A stretch of DNA of 64,000 bases from Candidatus Altimarinota bacterium (GTDB lineage Bacteria > Patescibacteriota > Gracilibacteria > CAIRYL01 > GCA-016699755): contig OY760935.1 in the NCBI GenBank assembly GCA_963664295.1, positions 1-64,000 of the forward strand, given 5' to 3'. The first letter of the stretch is position 1. Each line of letters begins with the position of its first letter. Of the stretch, positions 36,549 to 49,625 are shown piece after piece. The translations under genes were made by a program, and so were the position numbers. A model generated the notes under the pieces. It was not told where the DNA came from and did not search any database. It saw only the letters and a program-made list of their open reading frames with translations.

Positions 36549-39500
36549 TTACTCGCAAGCATTATTAAAAATCACCGTCTCTCCGTTTTGAGTGTCAATT
36601 ACTGCGCGGAAAACTGCAATAACATCAAGTAAATCAACCATGCCATTGTCGTTGAAGTCACTTGCTTCTAGTTGGGTTGCATCTGCCTCTGCTGAGCCAG
36701 AATAAAATTTCATTGCTAAGATTGCGTCAGTAAGGCTGTATACTCCATCGTAATTAACATCTCCGCTAGCAGGAATGCCAACATTAAATGGATAAATTTC
36801 TGAATTTAAACCAGCTGTTGAAGATACTCTTACAACAATTGTGTGTTTTCCGTTTGTCAAGTCTGCTAATTGAGGAATATAGATTGGTATTTCTAATGTA
36901 AGAAGTTCGTTGGTAAATGAGTAAGAGGCAGAAGCTGAGTCATTGATAATATTAAATACTTGTGCTGATGAAGGTATTTCATTAACAGAGCAATATCGAC
37001 CTTTTACTAAAGAAATTTCTACTGTTTTTAGGTCATCAATGCCATAAAGATTTAGAATATCTATATATAATGTGTCAGTTGTTCCTTTTGCAGCAGAGGC
37101 ATTGCCAGTGGTTGTAATTGAGATTATATCTAATAAGGCTCTTTCTGAATTTATTGTAATTGTGTTGGAAATTTCATCTTCCATAGTGGCATAGATTTTT
37201 GCTGTGCCTTCTTGGACAATTGTTAAGTAATAATTTGTTAGTGTGCCTATTGCTTCTGTGCCTAACCATTCAACCTGTCCAGAAATATCCCTATTTGTTC
37301 CATCTGCATAGGTTCCTATTGCTGTTAGTATGCAAATATCATTAACGCTTGCAGTATTATCGGTGCAGTTAGAGCTGATCTCAATATCTGTTAAATCTTT
37401 TTTATCTATTGCTGTCAGCGTAATAGAGTTATTGCAAAGAATTTCTTTTTCATCACTATTTACTATTGAACCTTTAATATTAGCAGAACCGTCGTTTGTG
37501 ATTGTTAAATCTCTGTCGCTAAGTGAGGCAATGGAAGAATATCCGTACCAATTAACAAGGTCTCCTACTTCTGCTGTATTGCCGTCCTCAAAGGTTCCCA
37601 CAGCTGATAATGTACAAACATCTTCAACCATGACGCTGTCTTCACAATTTAAGCTTGAAACCTCAAAAGACACTAATTTATCTGCATCAAGAACATTGAT
37701 TGTAATATTATTATTTGAAGCTATTCCATCTTGAACCGCAGAGATTGTTGTTATGCCTGCAGTGGAAATAGTAAGTACATCTTCGCTCACAGACCCTATT
37801 GATTCTGTTCCTCTCCATTCTACTTCTTTAGATATATCTCTTATTGTTTCGTCTTCGTATGTTCCTGTTGCTATTAAAGTGCAGATATCTCCGGTCACTA
37901 AGTTTTCCCCGTAATTACAATTTAAAAGATTGATACTTAATGATTTTAATGGTGAATCATTAACTGTAATAGTTGTGCTTATTGTTTTTGATTCATCGTT
38001 TTTATCAGTTATTTCAAGTGTTGCTTCGCCTGTTGTGTCGCCTGCACTTGTGAATGAAAAAACATTATTTGTAATACTGCCTTTTAATCCTGTTTCGTTA
38101 GGGTTAAAGGTAAATATATATTCTCCTGATCCACCAGTGACTATAATTGGGTCAGGTAGTTCATCCACATCTACTATTTGTGAATTGATGTTTAAAGAAA
38201 GGCTTGTTGATTCGATAATAATTACTATTTCTTTTGTTAGATTGTCATCATAATAATCAGTTATGTTTAAACTTACTGTTCCTGCTGAGCTTGGATCTGT
38301 ATTAAAAACAAATGTGTCACCATTTTGATAACCTCTAAGACCTGTTCCGTCTGAGTCATCAAGTTCCATAATATATTCGCCTGATCCACCGTTGACCTGA
38401 ATATCACCAATATCTTCATTAAGATTTATTTTTTGAGAACCAATATTTGTTGTTAATGGCCTGGCAAGCACATTTATTGTTGAGCTTGCTGTAATATTTG
38501 TCATGTCTTCTTCTGTAAGATTTACCACTGCTGTACCTTTTCTGAGTGCTGACTGAGTAAATACAAAATTATTATTTTCTCTTTGACCTAAAAGTTTGGT
38601 ATCACCTTCGTCAAATACAAAATTATATTTATCAGAACTTGAATAAGCTATTAAAGGCTTTGGAGTTTCTCCTACAAAAATTGATTGTTCGCTAATATTA
38701 ATTACAGGACTTGTTTGATAAACTGTGATTTTTGAAGTGGCAATGTTTTCTTGGTCATAGGTATCATAAATATTAAGAGTAATTGTTCCAGTTGTTAGAG
38801 CAGGTGAATTAAAAGTAAAAGTATTACCTTCGCTTGATCCGCTAATTCCCATTGCTTCATCAGCACTAAGTTCAAAAGTATATTCGCCTGATCCACCACT
38901 TGCTTTAATTGTTAATGGTGTTTGGTTGATTGCTATTGATTGACTGGCAATATTAGGTACTATTTTTAAACTATTTACTGTCACAATTGTTGTTTCTGAG
39001 ACATTATTCACGGTATCTGTTATTTGAATTGTAAATATACCTTTCTGTTCTGCTGATTTTGAGAAGATAAAAGTATCACCATTGATTGTGCCTTCTAATC
39101 CTGTGCCATTATCTGTTGTGGCGAAAGTGTATGTGCCTGATCCGCCAGAAATACTTATTGGATTTGGCGTTGAGCCTACTGTGATGCTTTGGTCACCATT
39201 TTCTATGTTTAATACTACTGATTTTATATTTATTGTTGCAGTAATACTTGTATTTGTTTGATTATCCGTAATTGTCAAAGTAGCTGTGCCAGTATTAGTA
39301 GCTGTACTAAAGTTATAAATATTATTATTTTCACTATCCACAGAGCCAGTAAGTCCTGTTGTTCCAGCATCAAGAGAAAAAGAATAATTACCAGAACCTC
39401 CGTTGACTTCAATGTTTGTAGGAGTTTTGCCAATTGCTACTGTTTGTGAGCTAAAATTCATGGAGAGCTCATTTGCAGAAACATTAATTACTGTAGTTAC

Positions 39501-42500
39501 GCTTGTATTTGTTTGATTATCCGTAATTGTCAAAGTAGCTGTACCAGTATTAGTAGCTGTACTAAAGTTATAAATATTATTATTTTCACTATCCACAGAG
39601 CCAGTAAGTCCTGTTGTTCCAGCATCAAGAGAAAAAGAATAATTACCAGAACCTCCGTTGACTTCAATGTTTGTAGGAGTTTTGCCAATTGCTACTGTTT
39701 GTGAGCTAAAATTCATGGAGAGCTCATTTGCAGAAACATTAATTACTGTAGTTACGCTTGTATTTGTTTGATTATCCGTAATTGTCAAAGTAGCTGTACC
39801 AGTATTAGTAGCTGTACTAAAGTTATAAATATTATTATTTTCACTATCCACAGAGCCAGTAAGTCCTGTTGTTCCAGCATCAAGAGAAAAAGAATAATTA
39901 TTTGAACCATTATTAACTGTAATACTTGCAGGAGTACCGTTTAAGTTGATAGTTTGACTACTTATATCTACAGATGGTCCACTTGCAGAAATATTAATTA
40001 ATACATCAATATTTTCATTTGTTTGATTATCCGTAATTGTCAAAGTGGCTGTACCGGTACTAGTAGCTGTACTAAAGTTATAAATATTATTATTTTCACT
40101 ATCAACTGAACCAGTAAGTCCTGTTGTTCCAGCATCAAGAGAAAAAGAATAATCCCCAGAGCCCCCGTTAATAATAATATTTAAAGGAGTGCTGTTAATA
40201 CTTATGGTTTGTGAGCTTAGATTTGCTGAAAGATTGGTAATCATGATATTTATTTTTGTGGTTATGCTTTCATTAGTATCATTATCCGTAATTGTCAAAG
40301 TGGCTGTACCGGTACTAGTAGCTGTACTAAAGTTATAAATATTATTATTTTCACTATCAACTGAACCAGTAAGTCCTGTTGTTCCAGCATTAAGAGAGAA
40401 GCTGTATTCTCCAGAACCACCACTAGCAGTAATACTAAAAGGAGTTTTGTTGATGCCAATTGTTTGTTCGGTTAAGTTTGCCGAAAGATTGGTGACGCCA
40501 ACATTCACTATTGCTTTAACGCTTTCATTAGTATCATTATCCGTAATTGTCAAAGTAGCTGTACCAGTATTAGTAGCTGTACTAAAGTTATAAATATTAT
40601 TATTTTCACTATCAACTGAACCGGTTAATCCTGTTGTTCCAGCATTAAGAGAGAAGCTGTATTCTCCAGAACCACCACTAGCAGTAATGCTAAAAGGAGT
40701 TTTGTTGATGCCAATTGTTTGTTCGGTTAAGTTTGCCGAAAGAATGACAACAATAACATTTATTGTCACATCAACGCTTTCATTAGTTTTATTGTCCGTA
40801 ATTGTCAAAGTGGCTGTACCGGTACTAGTAGCTGTACTAAAGTTATAAATATTATTATTTTCACTATCAACTGAACCGGTTAATCCTGTTGTTCCAGCAT
40901 TAAGAGAGAAGCTGTATTCTCCAGAACCACCACTAGTTTCAATGCTTGTTGGTGTGTCATAGAGCCCAATTGTTTGTGAGCTTAGATTAGCGGATAGTGT
41001 TTCTTCCTGAACTTCTATGCTAACATTTATAACTTCTTCACTATTATTATCTGTGATTGTCAAAGTAGCTACACCTTTACTAATTGCTGTGTTGTTTTCA
41101 TTAAAGCTATATGTATTGATATTGTTTTCGTTTTCATCATTTTTTGTTGCTGTTCCACTTAGTCCTGTGCCGTTATTGCTAAATTGAAACGAATAACTCC
41201 CTGATCCTCCTGATGCAACAATGTTTTCTGGTTTTTGCCCAATATAGATAGTTTGTTGAAGCAAATTAACAGATAAAGGATTGTAATCTTCTGCTATTAC
41301 AGAAATTTCTGCTGTTGTAGTGTGAGTTTGGCTTATATGATCTTCGCACTTGCTTCCGTTAATTGTTGAGTCGCAAGTACAAGTAATATTCAAGCTAGCT
41401 TTTTTTGCATCAGTTGCTGGACCTGTAATTGAAAATTCAAATTCAGATGTTTTGCCACCTGTTATTCCTGATCCGTTTTCATTGAAATCATATGTACAGG
41501 TATCGTACCAATCTTTGCCAATGCCAATTACTTTTATATTTTCTGCAACACCATTAACACTAATTACTTGTTTTTTGTAATCAACTTCTACATTATTTAG
41601 CTGAAAAAATGGTAAAACAGAACAACTAGAAGGATTTGTTTCTATGTAACAATCATAAGTTGCTTCTATTGCGCAAGCATCAGAACAACCATCTTCATTA
41701 TCAGTATTTCCATCATCACATTCCTCTGGTTCTTCCAGAACGCCATTTCCACAGCTAAAACATTGAGATAAACTATTTTCCGTATTATCACATTGCCAGT
41801 CAGTTTCAATTAAACATTCTGAAGAACAACCATCTTCATTATTAGTATTCCCATCATCACATTCTTCTGATCCTGCTTTACTTCCGTCTCCACAAGTGCC
41901 AGTTTCTACGCAAAAATAAAGTTCATTTGGGTCAATATCATCACCATAAGCTGAACCTAGAACAGCAATCCTTCTAAATCCTTCTGAGCAACCTGTTTGC
42001 GGGTTTTTGTCTGTATGGTTGATTGTTGTTTCTGTGATGAAATTATTAAGATTTGTTTCAGTGCCATCTATTGCGTGCCAACCAAACCAGCTATTTTTTG
42101 ATGTTTTTTCATTGCCAGAATTATGCACACATGAATAAATTGTATCTGTTTTTAAATCTTCTATTGTTGTTCCTTCATCTTCATTGTTCACAAATTGTAA
42201 TTTTATTTGTTGATAATTTGCAGGACAACTGGTTTTTGGGTCAATTTCTTGGCAATTAATTGTTGTGCTCGTCACAGAGTCATTGTCCCCTTGGTTTTCT
42301 CCATGATAACCACACCAAAAGCTATTTATTTCTGAGTCGTTAGGATTAAGAATTTGATCATTAGCTTCTGTAAGTACACAAGTAGAAAAAGTGTAATAAT
42401 CAGTATCGCCAGCGCTCGCAAGTCCGCTATAAGAAACCTTTGCAAACTCTGCTGGACAATTATTTTTTGGATTTTCTCCTCGACAAAGCACAGTAGTATT

Positions 42501-42731
42501 TTCTTCAATCGAACTATTTTCACCTCTTTTTTCAATATTATAACCACACCACATACCAAGATAGTCTTCTGATGTTATGGTGCCAGGATTTGTAATGTCA
42601 CCCTTATAGTTTTCAGGATTTGTTTGAAAAATACCAACACCAAGGGCCAAAAATAAGCTAATAGTTGACATAGTAACTATGCTTTTATAAAAAGCTGGCT
42701 TTTTATTTTTTTCTATGTTTGTTGTATTCAT
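36549..42731 (-). CDS. 2060-aa surface protein with Cys-rich repeats, tandem Ig-like repeats and a C-terminal dockerin
   Basis: N-terminal TM; three WCG/WFG repeats; two Myxococcus-type CGDG..EECDDGN..DGCS repeats; 85-aa SGGSG.YSF repeats; GDVNYDG/SDFNDNG duplicated Ca-binding loops. Confidence 0.9.
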   Translation of the reverse strand: MNTTNIEKNKKPAFYKSIVTMSTISLFLALGVGIFQTNPENYKGDITNPGTITSEDYLGMWCGYNIEKRGENSSIEENTTVLCRGENPKNNCPAEFAKVSYSGLASAGDTDYYTFSTCVLTEANDQILNPNDSEINSFWCGYHGENQGDNDSVTSTTINCQEIDPKTSCPANYQQIKLQFVNNEDEGTTIEDLKTDTIYSCVHNSGNEKTSKNSWFGWHAIDGTETNLNNFITETTINHTDKNPQTGCSEGFRRIAVLGSAYGDDIDPNELYFCVETGTCGDGSKAGSEECDDGNTNNEDGCSSECLIETDWQCDNTENSLSQCFSCGNGVLEEPEECDDGNTDNEDGCSDACAIEATYDCYIETNPSSCSVLPFFQLNNVEVDYKKQVISVNGVAENIKVIGIGKDWYDTCTYDFNENGSGITGGKTSEFEFSITGPATDAKKASLNITCTCDSTINGSKCEDHISQTHTTTAEISVIAEDYNPLSVNLLQQTIYIGQKPENIVASGGSGSYSFQFSNNGTGLSGTATKNDENENNINTYSFNENNTAISKGVATLTITDNNSEEVINVSIEVQEETLSANLSSQTIGLYDTPTSIETSGGSGEYSFSLNAGTTGLTGSVDSENNNIYNFSTATSTGTATLTITDNKTNESVDVTINVIVVILSANLTEQTIGINKTPFSITASGGSGEYSFSLNAGTTGLTGSVDSENNNIYNFSTATNTGTATLTITDNDTNESVKAIVNVGVTNLSANLTEQTIGINKTPFSITASGGSGEYSFSLNAGTTGLTGSVDSENNNIYNFSTATSTGTATLTITDNDTNESITTKINIMITNLSANLSSQTISINSTPLNIIINGGSGDYSFSLDAGTTGLTGSVDSENNNIYNFSTATSTGTATLTITDNQTNENIDVLINISASGPSVDISSQTINLNGTPASITVNNGSNNYSFSLDAGTTGLTGSVDSENNNIYNFSTATNTGTATLTITDNQTNTSVTTVINVSANELSMNFSSQTVAIGKTPTNIEVNGGSGNYSFSLDAGTTGLTGSVDSENNNIYNFSTATNTGTATLTITDNQTNTSVTTVINVSANELSMNFSSQTVAIGKTPTNIEVNGGSGNYSFSLDAGTTGLTGSVDSENNNIYNFSTATNTGTATLTITDNQTNTSITATINIKSVVLNIENGDQSITVGSTPNPISISGGSGTYTFATTDNGTGLEGTINGDTFIFSKSAEQKGIFTIQITDTVNNVSETTIVTVNSLKIVPNIASQSIAINQTPLTIKASGGSGEYTFELSADEAMGISGSSEGNTFTFNSPALTTGTITLNIYDTYDQENIATSKITVYQTSPVINISEQSIFVGETPKPLIAYSSSDKYNFVFDEGDTKLLGQRENNNFVFTQSALRKGTAVVNLTEEDMTNITASSTINVLARPLTTNIGSQKINLNEDIGDIQVNGGSGEYIMELDDSDGTGLRGYQNGDTFVFNTDPSSAGTVSLNITDYYDDNLTKEIVIIIESTSLSLNINSQIVDVDELPDPIIVTGGSGEYIFTFNPNETGLKGSITNNVFSFTSAGDTTGEATLEITDKNDESKTISTTITVNDSPLKSLSINLLNCNYGENLVTGDICTLIATGTYEDETIRDISKEVEWRGTESIGSVSEDVLTISTAGITTISAVQDGIASNNNITINVLDADKLVSFEVSSLNCEDSVMVEDVCTLSAVGTFEDGNTAEVGDLVNWYGYSSIASLSDRDLTITNDGSANIKGSIVNSDEKEILCNNSITLTAIDKKDLTDIEISSNCTDNTASVNDICILTAIGTYADGTNRDISGQVEWLGTEAIGTLTNYYLTIVQEGTAKIYATMEDEISNTITINSERALLDIISITTTGNASAAKGTTDTLYIDILNLYGIDDLKTVEISLVKGRYCSVNEIPSSAQVFNIINDSASASYSFTNELLTLEIPIYIPQLADLTNGKHTIVVRVSSTAGLNSEIYPFNVGIPASGDVNYDGVYSLTDAILAMKFYSGSAEADATQLEASDFNDNGMVDLLDVIAVFRAVIDTQNGETVIFNNACE
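39246..40935 (-). repeat. Intragenic tandem repeats, period ~255 bp (85 aa), about 7 units with a near-identical core
   Basis: Recurring AGTTGLTGSVDSENNNIYNFSTAT(S/N)TGTATLTITDN; units starting near 39250, 39505 and 39760 are almost identical in DNA. Confidence 0.93.
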
Positions 42732-42835
42732 TTATTTTTTGCGAGATTTTATCATATTATTATCTCATAAAATAAACTTTTTTTCAACAAAAAGAACCTT
42801 GACCAAAACCCTAATAAAAGGTGTTTAAAAACTGC

Positions 42836-43939
42836 TTATTCTTCTAATTCGTCCTTCTCCTCTTTTGTGAGAATATCTGCTCCCAACATGGTTTTAATTA
42901 AACTCTTTGAGTGATAGTTTTGACGCACTGTATCCCTGCTTACTAGTTCGTTTTCGTATAATTTAGTTAGATATTTGTCAAATAAGATATTTCCTATTTT
43001 GGTTGTAATTTCCATTTGTCCATAAATTTCTTGAATATCGCCATTTCTAATAAGATTTTTAATGGCATCATCAGGAAGCATAATTTCACGACAAGGGATT
43101 AGTTGATACTCATCTTTGTATTGCACTAAAGTTTGAGACAATACGCCTTTTAGTTCATTTGCTAATTGCATTAAAAGTTGTCGTTTTTTTAACGGAGGAA
43201 ACATGTTAATAATTCTTTCTATGCTTTGTACTGCATCAACTGTGTGTAGTGTTGCTATTACAAAATATCCAGATTCACACATAGTAAGTACTGTTTCCAT
43301 GGTTTCAAATCCTCGAATTTCACCAACACAAACCACATCTGCATCTTGTCTAAACACAGACTTTAGCTGTCTTGCAGAATCATTGAAGTTTTTTGGAATT
43401 ACACACTGTGAAATAATGCTTTGTTTGCGTTCATGTATGTATTCAATAGGATCTTCAAACATGATTATATTTAGTTTTCTGGTTTCATTTAAATAATCTA
43501 CTAAGCTATTCATTAAGGTTGTTTTTCCTGAGTTATTTGGACCTGTAATTAACAAAAGACCACTTCGATTATTGATAATATTTACAATTTCATTGCTCAC
43601 TGAAAGATCTTTTATGCTTGGTAGTTCTGGTGGTATATAGCGGATATTCATGCCTACACCTCTGCGTTCTTTAAAAACATTTATCCTGAAGCGTCCTGGA
43701 ATTCCTTCGATTGTTTTACCAAAATCACCATTATTATTTTTTTCAATTTCTTTTAATTCTTCTTTTTCCAATGCTTCTTCTAGAAATTGATTTAATTCTT
43801 CGGCTGTTAACTCATTTTTGTCCAAAGAAATAATTTCACCTGTTTTATCGCGCATGCAAGGTGTTTCGCTAGTAATTAAATGAATATCCGATATTTTATT
43901 TTTACTTTGAAAAGCAAGTATTTCTTTTATTGAAACCAT
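42836..43939 (-). CDS. pilT: PilT/PilU-family type IV pilus ATPase
   Basis: SDIHL, RFRINVF, GPNNSGKTT, EDPIE, VGEIR, ATLH and AIKNLIR motifs. Confidence 0.85.
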   Translation of the reverse strand: MVSIKEILAFQSKNKISDIHLITSETPCMRDKTGEIISLDKNELTAEELNQFLEEALEKEELKEIEKNNNGDFGKTIEGIPGRFRINVFKERRGVGMNIRYIPPELPSIKDLSVSNEIVNIINNRSGLLLITGPNNSGKTTLMNSLVDYLNETRKLNIIMFEDPIEYIHERKQSIISQCVIPKNFNDSARQLKSVFRQDADVVCVGEIRGFETMETVLTMCESGYFVIATLHTVDAVQSIERIINMFPPLKKRQLLMQLANELKGVLSQTLVQYKDEYQLIPCREIMLPDDAIKNLIRNGDIQEIYGQMEITTKIGNILFDKYLTKLYENELVSRDTVRQNYHSKSLIKTMLGADILTKEEKDELEE

Positions 43940-43940
43940 A

Positions 43941-45053
43941 TTATTTTTTTGTAAAAGGATTATCCATTAATATTTTTTTTCGAGGATCTGTTTCTTCTGT
44001 TTCCGTCTCTGTTTCTTCTTTTAAAGTTTCTTCTATTCCTTCTCCTTCTTGTTCTTGTTCAATTTCAGTTTTTGCTTGATTAAGCTCTTCCTCTGCTGTT
44101 GTTTTTTCTTCCTCTGCTTCTTCTAGTTCTTTTTGTTTTTCTGAAAGCAGAACCTCTGCTTCTTCTTTGGCTTGTTGTAGAGCTTTTAAGGCTTCTTCTT
44201 TTTCTCTTAGAGCCTCCTCTGCTTCTTTTTCTTCTTGTTCTGCTTTTTCTTCTGCTTGTTTTAATTGCTCAATTGCTGTTTGTTCTAGCTCTTTTGCTTC
44301 CTCTGCTTCTTTTGCTTCTTTGCTTGCCTCTCTTTTTGCTTCTTTTGCTTCCTCTTGTTCTTTTTTTGCTTTTTCTTTTGCTTCCTCTGCTTCTTTTTCT
44401 TCTTGTTCTGCTTTTTCTTTTGCTTGTTCTAGTTCTTGAATTGCTTTTTCTTTTTCTACTTGAGCCATTTTTGCTTCTTCAGACTCTTTTTCTGCCTCTG
44501 TTTCACTTGTTTTTAGCTGTGCTTCTGCTTCTTCCAGTTTTCTTTTTGCTTCTTCGATTGCAAGCTTTGCATCTTGTTCTTTTTCTTCCGCTTTTTCAAT
44601 TTTTTCCTCTAATTCCTCAGTATTTATTTTTTCCTCTTGAGCTTCCTTTATTTCTTTCGGTTCTTCAGGCTTTGTGTCTTCAATTGTTTCTCCTTCTTCA
44701 GCAGGTGCTAATTTGAGCTCTATTTTTGGCTCTTCTTCTGTGTTTTTATTTTCTTCCTCCACTTCTTCTGTCTCTGTGGCTACCTCTGCTTGTTCGTTTG
44801 GTTCTATTTTTTCTTCTTTTGCTGTTTCAAATACACTTTTTTTAGGCTCTTTTTTTTGTTCAATTTTTTCTTCAATGCTATCTTTTGCTCCCAAAAAGCC
44901 TTTTTTTAATCTACTAAAGATGCCCTCTTTTTCAGGTTCAGGCTCTTTTTCGATTTGTTTAGAATTTAAGTAATTCTTAATTTCTAAAAGTTCTTCTTGG
45001 CTTAATCCCTCAAGAACTTGTTTAATTTGATCAATTTTATCCTGATTTTTCAT
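43941..45053 (-). CDS. Glu/Lys/Ala-rich coiled-coil protein
   Basis: Long EKAEQEEKEAEEA-type repeats; stop lies 1 bp before the pilT start. Confidence 0.8.
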   Translation of the reverse strand: MKNQDKIDQIKQVLEGLSQEELLEIKNYLNSKQIEKEPEPEKEGIFSRLKKGFLGAKDSIEEKIEQKKEPKKSVFETAKEEKIEPNEQAEVATETEEVEEENKNTEEEPKIELKLAPAEEGETIEDTKPEEPKEIKEAQEEKINTEELEEKIEKAEEKEQDAKLAIEEAKRKLEEAEAQLKTSETEAEKESEEAKMAQVEKEKAIQELEQAKEKAEQEEKEAEEAKEKAKKEQEEAKEAKREASKEAKEAEEAKELEQTAIEQLKQAEEKAEQEEKEAEEALREKEEALKALQQAKEEAEVLLSEKQKELEEAEEEKTTAEEELNQAKTEIEQEQEGEGIEETLKEETETETEETDPRKKILMDNPFTKK

Positions 45054-45122: not shown

Positions 45123-45527
45123 TTAATTTCCTTTGTATTCCATGTGTGCATAAGATTTCACTTTTTTAAATCCAAGTTTTTCATAAAAACCTACAAGCCA
45201 ATCTTGTTTAGGGCTTGTGGATAAATTAATATGATCTATTTTTAATTTTTTGCATATTTTTATGCTTTTTTTAATTATTTTTTGTGCAATGCCTTGATTT
45301 CTCATGTCTTCTTGGACTCTTAAATCCAGCAAAAAAGCAAATCTATTAAAATCAGTTAAAATTCTGCAAGCACCAACAATTGTTTTGTTTTTTAAACAAA
45401 CAACAAAGAGGGGGGTGTTTTTGGTGGCACTTAAATATTCTTTTTGATAATGATTTTGATAAAAATCAGTAATTGAATTTTGAAATTCGGAAATATTTTT
45501 ATGATTTATAATTAAATAGGAAAGCAT
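45123..45527 (-). CDS. GNAT-family N-acetyltransferase
   Basis: VGACRI...LDLRV..DMRNQGIA (motif A) and GFYEKLGF; 13 bp downstream of the rSAM gene. Confidence 0.92.
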   Translation of the reverse strand: MLSYLIINHKNISEFQNSITDFYQNHYQKEYLSATKNTPLFVVCLKNKTIVGACRILTDFNRFAFLLDLRVQEDMRNQGIAQKIIKKSIKICKKLKIDHINLSTSPKQDWLVGFYEKLGFKKVKSYAHMEYKGN

Positions 45528-45540
45528 TTTTTGAAATTAT

Positions 45541-46806
45541 TTAATTTAAAAAGCTTAAATGACAGCCACCTTTGCATATATCTTGCAGTATACAATCTTG
45601 ACATGCCTTTGTAATATTTTTTTGTATATTGCTTATAGCAAAAGGTTGAATTTTTTGTTGCCATATATTTTTAACACCTTCGCTGATATCGCCAAATGTT
45701 CTGGTGTCATGAGGGCAAACCTTTGCTTCTCCTTTGTTATTCACTGCCATCCATCTTACTCCGGCATTGCAGTGTTGATTTAAAAATTTTTGACCAGTGG
45801 GCATATCAGTCTCGTTTATTATAGGTGTTTTTGTTTCTGAAAGACAATGTCTTTGTGAGCAGGGAGCTGTAATATTTATGCCTTCTGGATCTATTTGATC
45901 AAGTGCATCTCTAAATTGAGGATAATAAACACCAAATAATTGATCATTTCTTGATGTTGAAACGTATCTCATTAATCTAAATTCATGTACTCCTAATTCC
46001 TTGATGGTTTTAATTACAAAGGCAATGTCTTTAATATTTTGGTTTACTAAAGTCATCTCCACTATTACATTAATACCTTGTTTTAACGCCTCTTCTATTG
46101 CTTTAATTGTTTTTTTGAAACCATTTTTGTCTCCAACTAAATTATTATGCGAACTAGGTGAGCCATGCATGGAAATTAAAATTTCTTTTACATTATTTTC
46201 ACTTAGATATTTACTTTTTTCTGTTGTCAAAGTTGTGCCATTTGTAAAAACAACCTGATATAAGTTGTGTTTTGCACCAGATTGTATTATTTGATCAAAA
46301 TCAGGATGCAAAGAAGGCTCACCGCCACTGTATCTTATTCTAAATAAACCATTATCACTGCACTCTTTTTGTAGTGCAACTATTTGTTCAAGGGGTAAAT
46401 GTGGATTGCCTTTCATTTCTTTTTTTTGTGTTTTCCAGGTGTTATAGCAAAATTGACAACTCCAATTACATATTCTTGTAAGTTCAAGTTCTAAATTTAC
46501 GGGAAAAATAACTTTTTCATCTTGAATATTTGGATCCTTGTATAACTCTGTTGTGTCTTGATTGATCTGATTCGGCAGATCTTTCATTAATGTTGAAATA
46601 AGGTCTTGAATATCACTTATTACCATTTCTGGACTGGCTTCATATTCTTTTGCTATTTCTTGCGCAAGTGTTTCAATACTTTTTCCTTGTTTTAATTGAT
46701 CAAGTATAAAATCACCCATTTCATCTAATTGGTGTTCAACTCCTGTGTTAATATTAAGGGCCATTTTTAAGTCAGGACGATGAACTAATTTTGAAAGTTG
46801 TTTCAT
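45541..46806 (-). CDS. PqqD/RRE-fused radical SAM/SPASM enzyme
   Basis: N-terminal LDEMGDFILDQL...SIETLAQEIAKEYE...DIQDLI (PqqD-like); CNWSCQFC, SGGEP and TNG motifs; CNAG...G...CP and CQDCx5Cx3C. Confidence 0.93.
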   Translation of the reverse strand: MKQLSKLVHRPDLKMALNINTGVEHQLDEMGDFILDQLKQGKSIETLAQEIAKEYEASPEMVISDIQDLISTLMKDLPNQINQDTTELYKDPNIQDEKVIFPVNLELELTRICNWSCQFCYNTWKTQKKEMKGNPHLPLEQIVALQKECSDNGLFRIRYSGGEPSLHPDFDQIIQSGAKHNLYQVVFTNGTTLTTEKSKYLSENNVKEILISMHGSPSSHNNLVGDKNGFKKTIKAIEEALKQGINVIVEMTLVNQNIKDIAFVIKTIKELGVHEFRLMRYVSTSRNDQLFGVYYPQFRDALDQIDPEGINITAPCSQRHCLSETKTPIINETDMPTGQKFLNQHCNAGVRWMAVNNKGEAKVCPHDTRTFGDISEGVKNIWQQKIQPFAISNIQKNITKACQDCILQDICKGGCHLSFLN

Positions 46807-46808
46807 AG

Positions 46809-47726
46809 TTAAAATTTAATACAGTTTTTATGAATTGCTGTGATATTGCATCCGCTTTCGCAAATCCCTCTTGTTTCACAATTAAGACATTGAGCTAGTT
46901 GTGGGCGAAAATTTCTTAATCGCTCTTTTTCAATTTGCATTGCATCCCACATTTTTTTTAATGTAGCACCTTGAAAATCATGAATTATATTCATCATAAA
47001 ACAGCTAACAGCCTTGCCGTCAATATTTACAGAAATAATTCCTGGATCTCCACCATCACAAACTTCACCCTCAACAAAACCTTCTTCGATTTGTTGGTCC
47101 GGGTTATCTGCTGTTTTTTGTTTTATAACATTTTTGATATCAGTAATGTCTTGATTTGAGAGAACTAAATTACGACTTGCATTGCCGGCTAATTGGGTGG
47201 GGGAGATGTCAATTTTAACATTTAAACTTGCTCCTAAGTCAATCATTTCTGCAACTTCTCCTTTATTGAGTGAGTTAATAGAGAATCTGAGTGAATACGA
47301 AACACCTTGACTATCAAGCATTTCCAAAATTGTCATAATTTTGGCGAAGCTGTTTTTTCCTCTAATTGCATCAGTAGTTTTTTCTGTTGCTCCATCTAAG
47401 CTAATATTACAATGTGCATTATGATCTTTGACAGCATTTGCTATGTTGGGATGATTTAAAAATAAAGCATTTGTGCTAATGTTGATGTTTTTAAACATTT
47501 TTTGACCTGCAAAACGAATAATATCTTCAAATTCAGGATGCATCAAAGGCTCTCCGCCTGTTATATCTAAAGTGCTAACACCTAAGTCTTTGGATTCTGC
47601 AATAATACTTTTTGCTTTTGTAGGATTAATAAAAAAAGGTCTTTTTTCTCCCATATAACAATGTTTGCAATTTAAATTACAACCTTCAGCAATAGCTAGC
47701 TTAACGCGTGAATATTTTTCATTCAT
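46809..47726 (-). CDS. Radical SAM/SPASM enzyme without RRE
   Basis: CNLNCKHC, TGGEP, STN and ISLDG motifs; CDGG...DG...SC and CLNCx5Cx3C. Confidence 0.93.
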   Translation of the reverse strand: MNEKYSRVKLAIAEGCNLNCKHCYMGEKRPFFINPTKAKSIIAESKDLGVSTLDITGGEPLMHPEFEDIIRFAGQKMFKNINISTNALFLNHPNIANAVKDHNAHCNISLDGATEKTTDAIRGKNSFAKIMTILEMLDSQGVSYSLRFSINSLNKGEVAEMIDLGASLNVKIDISPTQLAGNASRNLVLSNQDITDIKNVIKQKTADNPDQQIEEGFVEGEVCDGGDPGIISVNIDGKAVSCFMMNIIHDFQGATLKKMWDAMQIEKERLRNFRPQLAQCLNCETRGICESGCNITAIHKNCIKF

Positions 47727-47748
47727 AAGATTTTTTTAAAAAGGTGGT

Positions 47749-47816
47749 GAGTCGTAGCCCACAAGAGGAGCTACGACTCGGTTGTTTGTTGCAGACAAGC
47801 AATGTAAGCATTGCTT
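47749..47816 (-). promoter_or_regulatory. Two stem-loops between the precursor ORF and the first rSAM gene
   Basis: GAGTCGTAGC (47749-47758)/GCTACGACTC (47770-47779) 10-bp perfect stem; AAGCAATG-taag-CATTGCTT (47797-47816). Confidence 0.8.
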
Positions 47817-47822
47817 AGGTCA

Positions 47823-47888
47823 TTAGTTGCACTGCGCGGAGGCTTGCTTTTTCGACCTGGTCTGCGGAGCGGTGTATGCCTTTTTCAT
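47823..47888 (-). CDS. Putative RiPP precursor peptide MKKAYTAPQTRSKKQASAQCN (21 aa)
   Basis: Hand-translated; AAAGGAGGTGAT lies 5 nt before the ATG; TAA-TGA double stop; YxxP motif; first gene of the rSAM operon. Confidence 0.85.
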   Translation of the reverse strand: MKKAYTAPQTRSKKQASAQCN

Positions 47889-47893
47889 TATTC

Positions 47894-47905
47894 ATCACCT
47901 CCTTT
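47894..47905 (-). promoter_or_regulatory. Very strong Shine-Dalgarno sequence
   Basis: AAAGGAGGTGAT, a 12-nt complement of the canonical 16S 3' tail. Confidence 0.85.
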
Positions 47906-48044
47906 CCGGGGCATGATTTATGCTAAAAAACATAACCCATGACATAAATTATATTTCTTTTGTATGAATTTTTGATGAAATAATGATATTTACTTCACAG
48001 TTTTTTAAAAACTAGCTATTATATTTTGGAAGATAATTTAGTCA

Positions 48045-49625
48045 ATGCCAAAAAAAAGTAAATCGTCAAAAAAAGTTATTGTTTTAGGAAGTGGTCCTTA
48101 TTCAATTGGATCTTCTGTTGAGTTTGATTGGTGTAGTATTGCAGCAGCAAAAACACTACAAAAAGAAGGGCATGAAACAATAATGGTTAATTCTAACCCT
48201 GAAACTGTTTCTACTGATTTTGATACTTGTAATAAGCTTTATTTTGATGAACTTTCACTAGAAAGAGTTTTGGATATTATTGACATAGAAAAACCAAACG
48301 GAATTGTGGTTTTTTCTGGCGGGCAGATACCAAACAACCTTGCGCCAAAATTAGCAGAGCAAAAAGTAAAATTAATGGGTACTAACCCAAAAAATATAGA
48401 TAAAGCAGAAGATAGACACCAGTTTTCTTCTCTTTTGGATGAATTGGAAATAGACCAGCCTGCTTGGAAAGAGTTTACAAGTCGCGAACAGGCAATTAAA
48501 TTTGCTAAAAAATTTGGCTATCCTGTTTTAATTCGTCCTTCAAAAGTTCTTTCTGGGGCTGCTATGGCTGTTGCCAGAAACGAAGATGAGCTTTGTACAT
48601 TTTTAGCAAAAGCTGCAAAAATTGATTCTGATGCCCCAGTTGTAATTTCAAAATATGAAGTTGGAGCAAGGGAAATTGAAATGGACGCAGTTGCTCATAA
48701 AGGCAAAATGGTTATTTGGGCAATTTCTGAGCATGTAGAAAATGCTGGTGTTCATTCTGGTGATGCCACCCTGGTTTTGCCTCCGCAAAAAACCTGGCTG
48801 GAAACGATCCGTAGAATTAGAAAAATAACTAAAAAATTAGCAAAAAATTTGGATATAACAGGCCCTTTTAATATTCAATTTTTGGCAAAATCAAATGACA
48901 TTAAGGTAATTGAGTTAAATTTACGCGCTAGTCGTAGTTTTCCTTTTGTTTCTAAGGTGACAGGTCACAATTTTATTGAAATTGCCACTAAAGCCGTGCT
49001 TGGCAAAGTTGAACCAAAAGAAAAAAGAGAGCAAAAATATCAAACTCTTGATCTTGGTCATGTTGGTGTAAAAGTTCCTCAATTTTCTTTTTCTCGTCTT
49101 TCTGGTGCTGATCCTGTGCTTTCTGTTGAAATGGCTTCTACTGGTGAGGTTGCTTGTTTTGGTGAGAACTTTGAAGAGGCATTTTTAAAAGCTATGATTT
49201 CTGCTGGATTTAGAGTTCCAAATAAGAATATTTTGATTTCTATTGGAAAAACTAAAGACAAAGTTAGTTTTATTGATAGTGCTAAGCTTTTAGTTGAAAT
49301 GGGATATAGCCTATACGCTACCACAGGTACAGCTGAATTTTTGAAAGAGCAGGGAGTATCTGCAAAAATTCTCCATAGAGTGTCTTGCGGTAAAAAGCCA
49401 TCAATAGTTGATTATATTTATCAGAAAAAACTTGATTTAGTTATCAATATTCCGAAAAATTTTGCTCACGATGAAGAAACAGACGGATTTAGGCTAAGAA
49501 GAGCAAGTGTGGACTCAAATATTCCACTTGTAAATAATTTACAAGTGGCAATTGCACTTATTGGTTCATTGAAAAAATATGTTAATAAGGAATTAAAATC
49601 CCAATCTTGGGACGACTTTGTTTAA
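48045..49625 (+). CDS. carB: Carbamoyl-phosphate synthase large subunit, C-terminal half only (ATP-grasp 2 + MGS domain)
   Basis: GSGP..IGSSVEFDWC, NSNPETVSTD, AGVHSGDA, RASRSFPFVSK, EMASTGEV and YATTGT motifs; 526 aa. Confidence 0.9.
   Translation: MPKKSKSSKKVIVLGSGPYSIGSSVEFDWCSIAAAKTLQKEGHETIMVNSNPETVSTDFDTCNKLYFDELSLERVLDIIDIEKPNGIVVFSGGQIPNNLAPKLAEQKVKLMGTNPKNIDKAEDRHQFSSLLDELEIDQPAWKEFTSREQAIKFAKKFGYPVLIRPSKVLSGAAMAVARNEDELCTFLAKAAKIDSDAPVVISKYEVGAREIEMDAVAHKGKMVIWAISEHVENAGVHSGDATLVLPPQKTWLETIRRIRKITKKLAKNLDITGPFNIQFLAKSNDIKVIELNLRASRSFPFVSKVTGHNFIEIATKAVLGKVEPKEKREQKYQTLDLGHVGVKVPQFSFSRLSGADPVLSVEMASTGEVACFGENFEEAFLKAMISAGFRVPNKNILISIGKTKDKVSFIDSAKLLVEMGYSLYATTGTAEFLKEQGVSAKILHRVSCGKKPSIVDYIYQKKLDLVINIPKNFAHDEETDGFRLRRASVDSNIPLVNNLQVAIALIGSLKKYVNKELKSQSWDDFV

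Follow-up and report, generated by a model that had tools for sequence, protein, structure and literature searches.

The 64,000-nt stretch of DNA analysed here (the window; Candidatus Altimarinota bacterium, contig OY760935.1) contains a 21-codon micro-ORF that is almost certainly the real precursor of an undescribed family of radical SAM (rSAM) RiPPs. The peptide defines a RiPP family that has a two-residue core, Gln-Cys, and that annotation has missed, and its gene context suggests a specific target, GlyRS. We lean slightly toward the reading in which this YxxP-x10-QC peptide is the precursor for an rSAM enzyme carrying an RRE, and its Gln-Cys is converted to a predicted glycine-mimicking toxin that inhibits GlyRS. 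The intact two-rSAM RiPP cluster is retained in a Patescibacteria-type genome of 1.2 Mb.

The micro-ORF and its gene cluster

The features of the locus, in window coordinates, are as follows.
48018..48045, minus strand: sigma70-like promoter, TTGACT-16-TATAAT, 11/12 (consensus match only)
47894..47905, minus strand: canonical 12-nt Shine-Dalgarno (SD), pairing imperfectly with the host's non-canonical 16S tail
47823..47888, minus strand: precursor peptide, 21 aa, with YxxP at 5-8, a 10-residue linker, Gln19-Cys20 core, and Asn21
47797..47816, minus strand: 8-bp stem-loop directly past the stop codons
47738..47779, minus strand: 10-bp GC stem-loop followed by a T-run, terminator/attenuator-like, separating precursor from enzyme genes
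46809..47726, minus strand: radical SAM enzyme 1 (rSAM 1), 305 aa, SPASM-like C-terminal cysteines, no RRE
45541..46806, minus strand: RRE(PqqD)-radical SAM-SPASM enzyme (RRE-rSAM), 421 aa, the gene common to all family clusters
45123..45527, minus strand: GNAT acetyltransferase, 134 aa

The micro-ORF (47823-47888, on the minus strand, which the earlier note had left unstated) is a real frame of 21 codons with the product MKKAYTAPQTRSKKQASAQCN. Its reported sequence details were borne out: the 12-nt SD AAAGGAGGTGAT at 47905-47894 is separated from the ATG by a 5-nt spacer, the frame stops in TAA TGA, 35/66 nt are G or C, and 16 of the 21 sense codons end in G or C. The contrast drawn with the flanking genes also held, as the rSAM and GNAT genes have GC3 values of 0.19-0.22 and A/T-rich leaders without an SD. 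A second frame of 27 codons overlaps the micro-ORF and starts inside the SD. The promoter candidate lies ~130 nt upstream of the micro-ORF; three such sites were found versus 1.8 in shuffles, making the match weak by itself. The hairpin region (47715-47960) folds with a z-score of -4.3. A single low-depth contig (run X4) has a one-base insertion at window position 47820, just after the double stop of the precursor.

The 421-aa enzyme matches PF05402, PF04055, and PF13186 above their cut-offs and combines an RRE (PqqD), CxxxCxxC, and SPASM. Its group consists of 20 full-length clusters at 50% identity that score 340-604 bits, below which lie fragments and unrelated proteins at ≤277 bits, and 8 cysteines in the SPASM region are invariant across the clade. 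Among the best 25 NCBIfam families no cut-off was reached, and the ESM Atlas returned generic rSAM/SPASM clusters only. When a structure model of the enzyme (pLDDT 91.7) was compared to RiPP maturases with Foldseek, SkfB and SuiB came out on top (TM 0.58-0.69, 15-21% identity).

rSAM 1 forms its own small family, with 39% identity to the copy at one metagenome locus (L012). The GNAT gave generic matches only and is a candidate for either self-protection or tailoring. We assign it to the cluster because rSAM 1, RRE-rSAM, and GNAT occur in the same order in a second Patescibacteria genome, under consecutive accessions (MEK7528704, -705, -706) and at 52-58% identity. Genes for MetK, for a class V aminotransferase/IscS-type enzyme, and for a NifU-type scaffold are present in the host genome, in which SufBD had no match.

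Divergent from the cluster, window positions 48045-49625 (plus strand) encode a 526-aa protein resembling the large subunit of carbamoyl-phosphate synthase, about half the usual length of CarB. Downstream of the GNAT, positions 36549-45053 (minus strand) encode a 2060-aa repeat-rich surface-type protein, a PilT-like ATPase, and a 370-aa Glu/Lys-rich protein without a Pfam match.

The precursor motif across related clusters

We fetched 27 loci of the RRE-rSAM clade, the window included, of which L011 was unusable, with only 34 nt upstream of its GST-RRE gene. The other 26 comprise the window, three metagenome records (L012-L014), the Nocardia loci L091-L093, L171 (Geobacillus pLW1071), L172 (a Clostridium tagluense plasmid), L173 (an IMG/VR record), and 16 further Nocardia loci. 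The frame is conserved at all 26, as YxxP-x10-QC-x(1-2)-stop upstream of the RRE-rSAM gene on the same strand, whereas the exact motif had 0 matches in 241 non-clade rSAM loci (1.83 Mb); a short precursor ORF conserved beside the maturase is thus found at 26/26 clade loci versus 0/241 others. Nineteen distinct motifs are represented, and Y, P, Q, and C are the only residues that all of them share. Since many of the Nocardia loci are closely related, the number of independent cases is below 26, although several phyla are spanned nonetheless. In the host genome, the exact motif occurs once; the looser YxxP-x(8-14)-C pattern proposed earlier proved unspecific, with 35 matches.

The call of an RRE-type RiPP precursor therefore stands, as the exact motif is conserved in the clade loci and absent from the other rSAM loci. 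Both Y and P are retained in 19/19 distinct motifs. YxxP has itself been characterised as a sequence that RREs recognise (PMC12710340, available part), and the RRE of the adjacent rSAM has the lasso RRE TbiB1 as its best PDB sequence match (E 0.0014), with the RRE of the GST-RRE proteins also weakly similar. The leader, which had been placed at about residues 1-10, is corrected to ~18 residues of leader and linker: the YxxP-x10-QC register is fixed across loci, so that the conserved core is the C-terminal Gln-Cys, exactly 10 residues after Pro. The Cys is penultimate in some members only, Gln-Cys being followed by either one residue (N, D, A, or H) or SF. The precursors match no NCBIfam model, and neither of the two public plasmids has the precursor among its listed genes.

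The clusters fall into several types. The two-rSAM type comprises the window and L012, the latter with a third rSAM. The GST-RRE type comprises L011, 14 Nocardia loci, and four Bacillota-type loci; its GST domain carries an invariant GCxC insert, and a single-sequence model of GST-RRE was poor (pLDDT 42.9). Bacillota-type loci add an MFS transporter and, in 3/4 cases, a LadA-type monooxygenase, which on pLW1071 is LadA itself (PDB 3b9n; 67-79% identity to the other two). On this plasmid, from a cultured, non-pathogenic Geobacillus thermodenitrificans strain, the cluster adjoins ladA, which suggests that the native role of this well-known enzyme is a different one. The third, QCSF type (L014, L093, L291-L294) combines a second RRE-rSAM with either one or two PhyH dioxygenases, joined by a TrmO-like protein in its Nocardia copies. 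No peptidase was seen in clusters of any type. GST-RRE and a second rSAM were never found together in the loci read; we make no claim of mutual exclusion because of a mixed case in Azorhizobium AG788, where rSAM 1 and an RRE-rSAM that lies near the GST branch of our quick rSAM tree are separated by two unseen accessions.

We note several further features of these loci. The ladA gene of pLW1071 (L171:104-1426) is divergent from the precursor, and its close homologues at L013 and L173 are in operon; the next PDB relative of LadA is dimethyl-sulfide monooxygenase. At L293:2314-5683, the QCSF cluster is followed by genes for FGE-sulfatase-domain, NAD epimerase, PIG-L deacetylase, and methyltransferase proteins. 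Loci L015, L094, and L096, outside the QC-core family, represent another system with two tandem rSAMs, followed at L096 by a short PqqD-like ORF and preceded at L015 by a Cys-rich short frame.

The RRE-rSAM clade is found in none of 400 other genomes of the host's class. We considered vertical inheritance and rejected it, given this absence and the weak, partial rSAM matches that were all we obtained from 60 relatives. A draw of 300 genomes from the family of genome G061 contained no further cluster, a genus-level draw yielded more, and INPHARED phages had no match to the cluster.

Several known systems share parts of this architecture. In fosfazinomycin biosynthesis, 21/22-mer YxxP scaffolds bear the small C-terminal product (PMC13622209, available part). 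Like the micro-ORF, the FzmZ-type scaffolds are encoded by unannotated ORFs of ~21 residues with an N-terminal YxxP for the RRE, and their C-terminal dipeptide becomes a small product with no dedicated peptidase, a fate that we infer for the present family. The scaffold features (21/22-mer, YxxP, conserved C-terminal dipeptide) are all found here; the RRE-fused asparagine-synthetase-like enzyme is not, its place being taken by RRE-rSAM/SPASM or RRE-GST, and the core is QC compared to VR. Enteropeptins (KGR) and threoglucins (TQQ), which are streptococcal/enterococcal RaS-RiPPs, likewise depend on an rSAM that joins adjacent residues into a small ring, a thiomorpholine in enteropeptins and a link to the Gln alpha-carbon in TQQ (PMC13361665, available part), whereas the ring proposed here is a prediction. 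QC is absent from the 16 motif families listed in the available part of that source, the accessory enzymes are different, and Rgg/SHP control was not seen at our loci. On the clade rSAM, the WgkB, StsB, and KxxxW models score far under their cut-offs.

SkfB, AlbA, CteB, and SuiB share the RRE-rSAM-SPASM fold, being the top Foldseek hits, but these sactipeptide and streptide maturases are only 15-21% identical to the 421-aa enzyme, whose precursor has a single Cys in a two-residue core. Scores remain below the cut-offs of the sactipeptide families (SkfB 71.8 vs 300, AlbA 59.9 vs 850, StsB 85.8 vs 625 bits), of ranthipeptide PapB (84.7 vs 340 bits, with a single Cys near the C-terminus and no CxxxD/multi-Cys core), and of the PQQ and mycofactocin enzymes (PqqE 77.9 vs 381, MftC 69.8 vs 265 bits). 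The lasso pair TbiA/TbiB1 shares with the clade the YxxP recognition sequence (PMC12710340, available part) and, through weak matches, a lasso-type RRE. Lasso systems, however, have an asparagine-synthetase-like cyclase and a B2 peptidase, neither of which is among the cluster genes scanned, and a core of 15-26 residues, compared to 3-4 here with the trailing residues. Earlier work may already have picked up this gene cluster, as RRE-Finder raises RRE-GST fusions as candidates for new RiPP clusters and 4/9 clusters in its Fig. S7 encode rSAMs (PMC7470986); neither a precursor motif nor a GlyRS link is named in the available part of that text. Our literature search, with subscription papers mostly outside its coverage, found no description of a QC-core family or a GlyRS-linked cluster, and the one supplementary file of PMC12710340 contained no match to the family.

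GlyRS genes beside the clusters and the predicted product

Among 151 genomes of the genus Nocardia, we identified 17 carriers with 18 cluster loci. An extra GlyRS, of one of two unrelated types, lies beside the cluster in 17/17 carriers, compared to at most 7/134 non-carriers with any extra GlyRS (3 with GlyQ and 4 with at least two alpha2 matches, one of these probably fragments). Fourteen of the 18 clusters end in a fused GlyQS, and in these operons glyQS abuts or overlaps the rSAM gene; at the other 4, the gene immediately in front of the cluster encodes a second alpha2 GlyRS, and the housekeeping copy resides on a different contig. The same pattern is seen in N. takedensis (G063, outside the 151-genome sample) and at L014. 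In the quick tree, the GlyRS link appears in two separate rSAM branches and in three combinations, L014 included. Two unrelated GlyRS types in two rSAM branches favour function over hitch-hiking. Many of the GlyRS-linked loci are near-identical kin, and the window rSAM falls outside both GlyRS-linked branches of this quick tree.

The cluster GlyQS copies are full length with conserved motifs in the alpha part and look intact. The five cluster alpha2 GlyRS (L093, L291-L294) share 9 differences from eight housekeeping copies, such as S82A and N291S; position 291 presumably borders the glycine pocket. GlyQS genes similar to the cluster copies (up to 75% identity; L279, L281, L290) also occur in Nocardia without a cluster, at a contig end, or split, and are possibly orphan resistance genes or remnants. 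In three multi-match non-carrier Nocardia genomes (L300, L305, L306), alpha2 glyS copies lie among phage-like genes.

An intact extra synthetase beside the cluster, the mark of aaRS-inhibitor clusters, is found at the Nocardia loci and not in the window genome, which has a single alpha2 GlyRS ~43 kb from the cluster, no GlyQ, and no extra copy. Three cluster-bearing Bacillota mobile elements have a GlyRS of neither type in whole-element searches, whose coverage excludes L012 and L013. The GlyRS link is thus seen at actinobacterial-type loci only. The ascamycin (AcmD) and SB-203208 (SbzA) clusters also hold a second aaRS copy, but are non-RiPP and concern AlaRS/IleRS, whereas the loci here involve GlyRS of two unrelated types (PMC12945691, available part). 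AcmD, an extra AlaRS, confers self-resistance, and cluster-encoded aaRS such as SbzA and AcmD can also be biosynthetic (same source, available part).

GlyRS is the predicted target because related Nocardia clusters hold a spare copy of it. We propose that the RRE very probably binds YxxP, so that the 10-residue linker would put Gln-Cys in the active site. The rSAM might then take a hydrogen from Gln and link that carbon to the adjacent Cys sulfur, a step that we rate a little short of even; if the link were to the alpha-carbon, a six-membered thiomorpholinone ring would result. As precedents, the rSAM TqqB attacks a Gln alpha-carbon, and enteropeptin rSAMs make thiomorpholine rings (PMC13361665, available part). 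A second enzyme would work on the sulfur centre: rSAM 1 at the window and, elsewhere, GST-RRE (through GCxC) or a second RRE-rSAM with PhyH dioxygenases, sometimes a LadA-type flavin monooxygenase. Since no peptidase was seen in the clusters, we propose that housekeeping peptidases would release the product. The product would probably act on GlyRS, with protection conferred by the spare GlyRS in actinobacteria, by export in Bacillota, and by GNAT-mediated N-acetylation in the window host.

We consider a GlyRS-directed product probable at the level of the family and less certain for the subtype of the window host, as products may differ between subtypes. To our knowledge, no natural GlyRS inhibitor has been described. 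The predicted Gln-Cys thioether is no obvious analogue of either glycine or glycyl-adenylate, a poor mimicry that makes new radical chemistry conceivable, as it does an SbzA-like biosynthetic GlyRS. Such chemistry could, for example, cleave the Gln side chain to leave an alpha-thio-glycine unit, or add the 5'-deoxyadenosyl radical to the Cys sulfur and so yield a glycyl-adenylate mimic. A more speculative and rather doubtful extension is a cross-phylum RiPP class in which the rSAM turns Gln-Cys into a natural GlyRS inhibitor by new chemistry, made by a genome-reduced Patescibacteria-type symbiont and with LadA in origin its sulfur-oxidising tailoring enzyme.

The cluster GlyRS might instead be biosynthetic, with the same precursor and core, supplying Gly-tRNA or transferring glycine to the modified Gln-Cys as for SbzA and AcmD/AcmF, while hosts without an extra copy would use the housekeeping enzyme. 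The intact genes and the close abutment or overlap of glyQS with the rSAM gene in Nocardia fit such a role, for which there is precedent (PMC12945691, available part) and which is compatible with self-resistance. We nonetheless consider it unlikely: the four-gene Nocardia operon shows no member of a tRNA-dependent ligase family, two structurally unrelated GlyRS types fit tolerance better than special catalysis, and at L279 a stand-alone GlyQS with 75% identity to a cluster copy occurs without a cluster. PQQ synthesis rests on a short scaffold, an RRE, and an rSAM/SPASM enzyme (PqqA/D/E), an architecture that the short YxxP-type scaffold with RRE and rSAM/SPASM resembles. The Gln-Cys product could by this likeness be a cofactor or signal, as are PQQ and mycofactocin, and the GlyRS a passenger on actinobacterial mobile elements; the glyS duplicates on phage-like elements without a cluster (L300, L305, L306) and the LadA-type oxidoreductase beside 3/4 Bacillota clusters would agree with this. 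However, passengers would not readily account for an association seen in 17/17 carriers versus at most 7/134 non-carriers, with two GlyRS types in three combinations, and no cofactor-dependent enzyme recurs consistently across the subtypes, which show a patchy mobile distribution and MFS exporters. We therefore regard a cofactor or signal as improbable and retain the GlyRS-directed toxin as our preferred reading.

Translation signals and base composition in the host

The earlier note inferred from the SD and the GC content that the micro-ORF is highly translated, and suggested checking whether the host 16S keeps CCUCC. The host genome is complete (1.215 Mb) with a single 16S gene, which ends GGACCACCCCUU, without CCUCC, and SD-like words in host leaders occur at shuffle level (20/891 vs 18.6, with starts crudely called). 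High translation is thus unsupported, as neither the SD nor the GC content is proof of it with such a tail and without SD enrichment in the leaders. The SD pairs at -19.0 kcal/mol with a canonical tail and at -11.3 kcal/mol with the host tail, the latter still within the top 0.3% of ORFs, and the 12-mer occurs twice in the 1.215-Mb genome. GC3 averages 0.22 across 891 crudely called host ORFs and is also 0.22 in EF-Tu and GroEL. Against this average the G/C-ending codons of the micro-ORF are far from chance (binomial P ~2e-7), and 83 of the 336,048 21-codon windows in the 891 ORFs reach 16 such codons. Among the 26 loci, only at the window is precursor GC3 (0.82) far from locus GC (0.32).

This sharp gap, together with the absence of the clade from 400 other class genomes, a host tail without CCUCC, and SD use at background, would fit a window copy that is a silent relic of horizontal transfer, its canonical SD and high GC being remnants of the donor that host ribosomes are unable to exploit. 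Against this, all four cluster frames are intact, the rSAM cysteines are retained, the enzyme genes have host-like GC3, the three-gene order recurs at 52-58% identity in the second Patescibacteria genome, and the micro-ORF is covered by a near-identical contig from a second study, which differs over 720 nt by 2 substitutions and 1 gap. We consider a relic very unlikely. Far less plausible still is a chance frame within a GC-rich structured non-coding RNA, which the high GC and the strong hairpins nearby might suggest. We rejected this candidate, since a peptide motif conserved across phyla in a fixed register contradicts a chance frame, an Rfam scan of 47600-48100 found no family at gathering score, and the leader and ORF are no more structured than synonymous controls, 81% of 500 of which fold at least as well. 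We therefore continue to read the micro-ORF as a precursor gene.

Six long host ORFs have GC3 of at least 0.5, all with SD-like leaders and, by eye, signal-peptide-like N-termini, so such features are not unique to the micro-ORF. Their positions in the host genome (G000:C1) are as follows.
169400-169828, minus strand: isolated GC-rich gene 1
264485-264958, minus strand: isolated GC-rich gene 2
87631-88779, minus strand: isolated GC-rich gene 3
269991-271001, plus strand: isolated GC-rich gene 4
572932-573876, minus strand: isolated GC-rich gene 5
617756-618823, minus strand: isolated GC-rich gene 6

These genes have a GC content of 0.46-0.51 and GC3 of 0.50-0.61, and several end in GC hairpin terminators. 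Three of the six are paralogues, with a weak match in 1/30 relatives. As the host lacks both CCUCC and SD use, they look built for another translation regime; the GC-rich SD-led genes may be donor relics, or their composition may be selected, possibly for expression in a host cell. CCUCC is kept in 1/5 of the 16S tails from the host's family versus 8/8 from the sister family. Across the host's family the anti-SD is altered, reading CCACCCC or CACTTCC, with one canonical case (16S 3' end near 568700 in the host; L308-L332).
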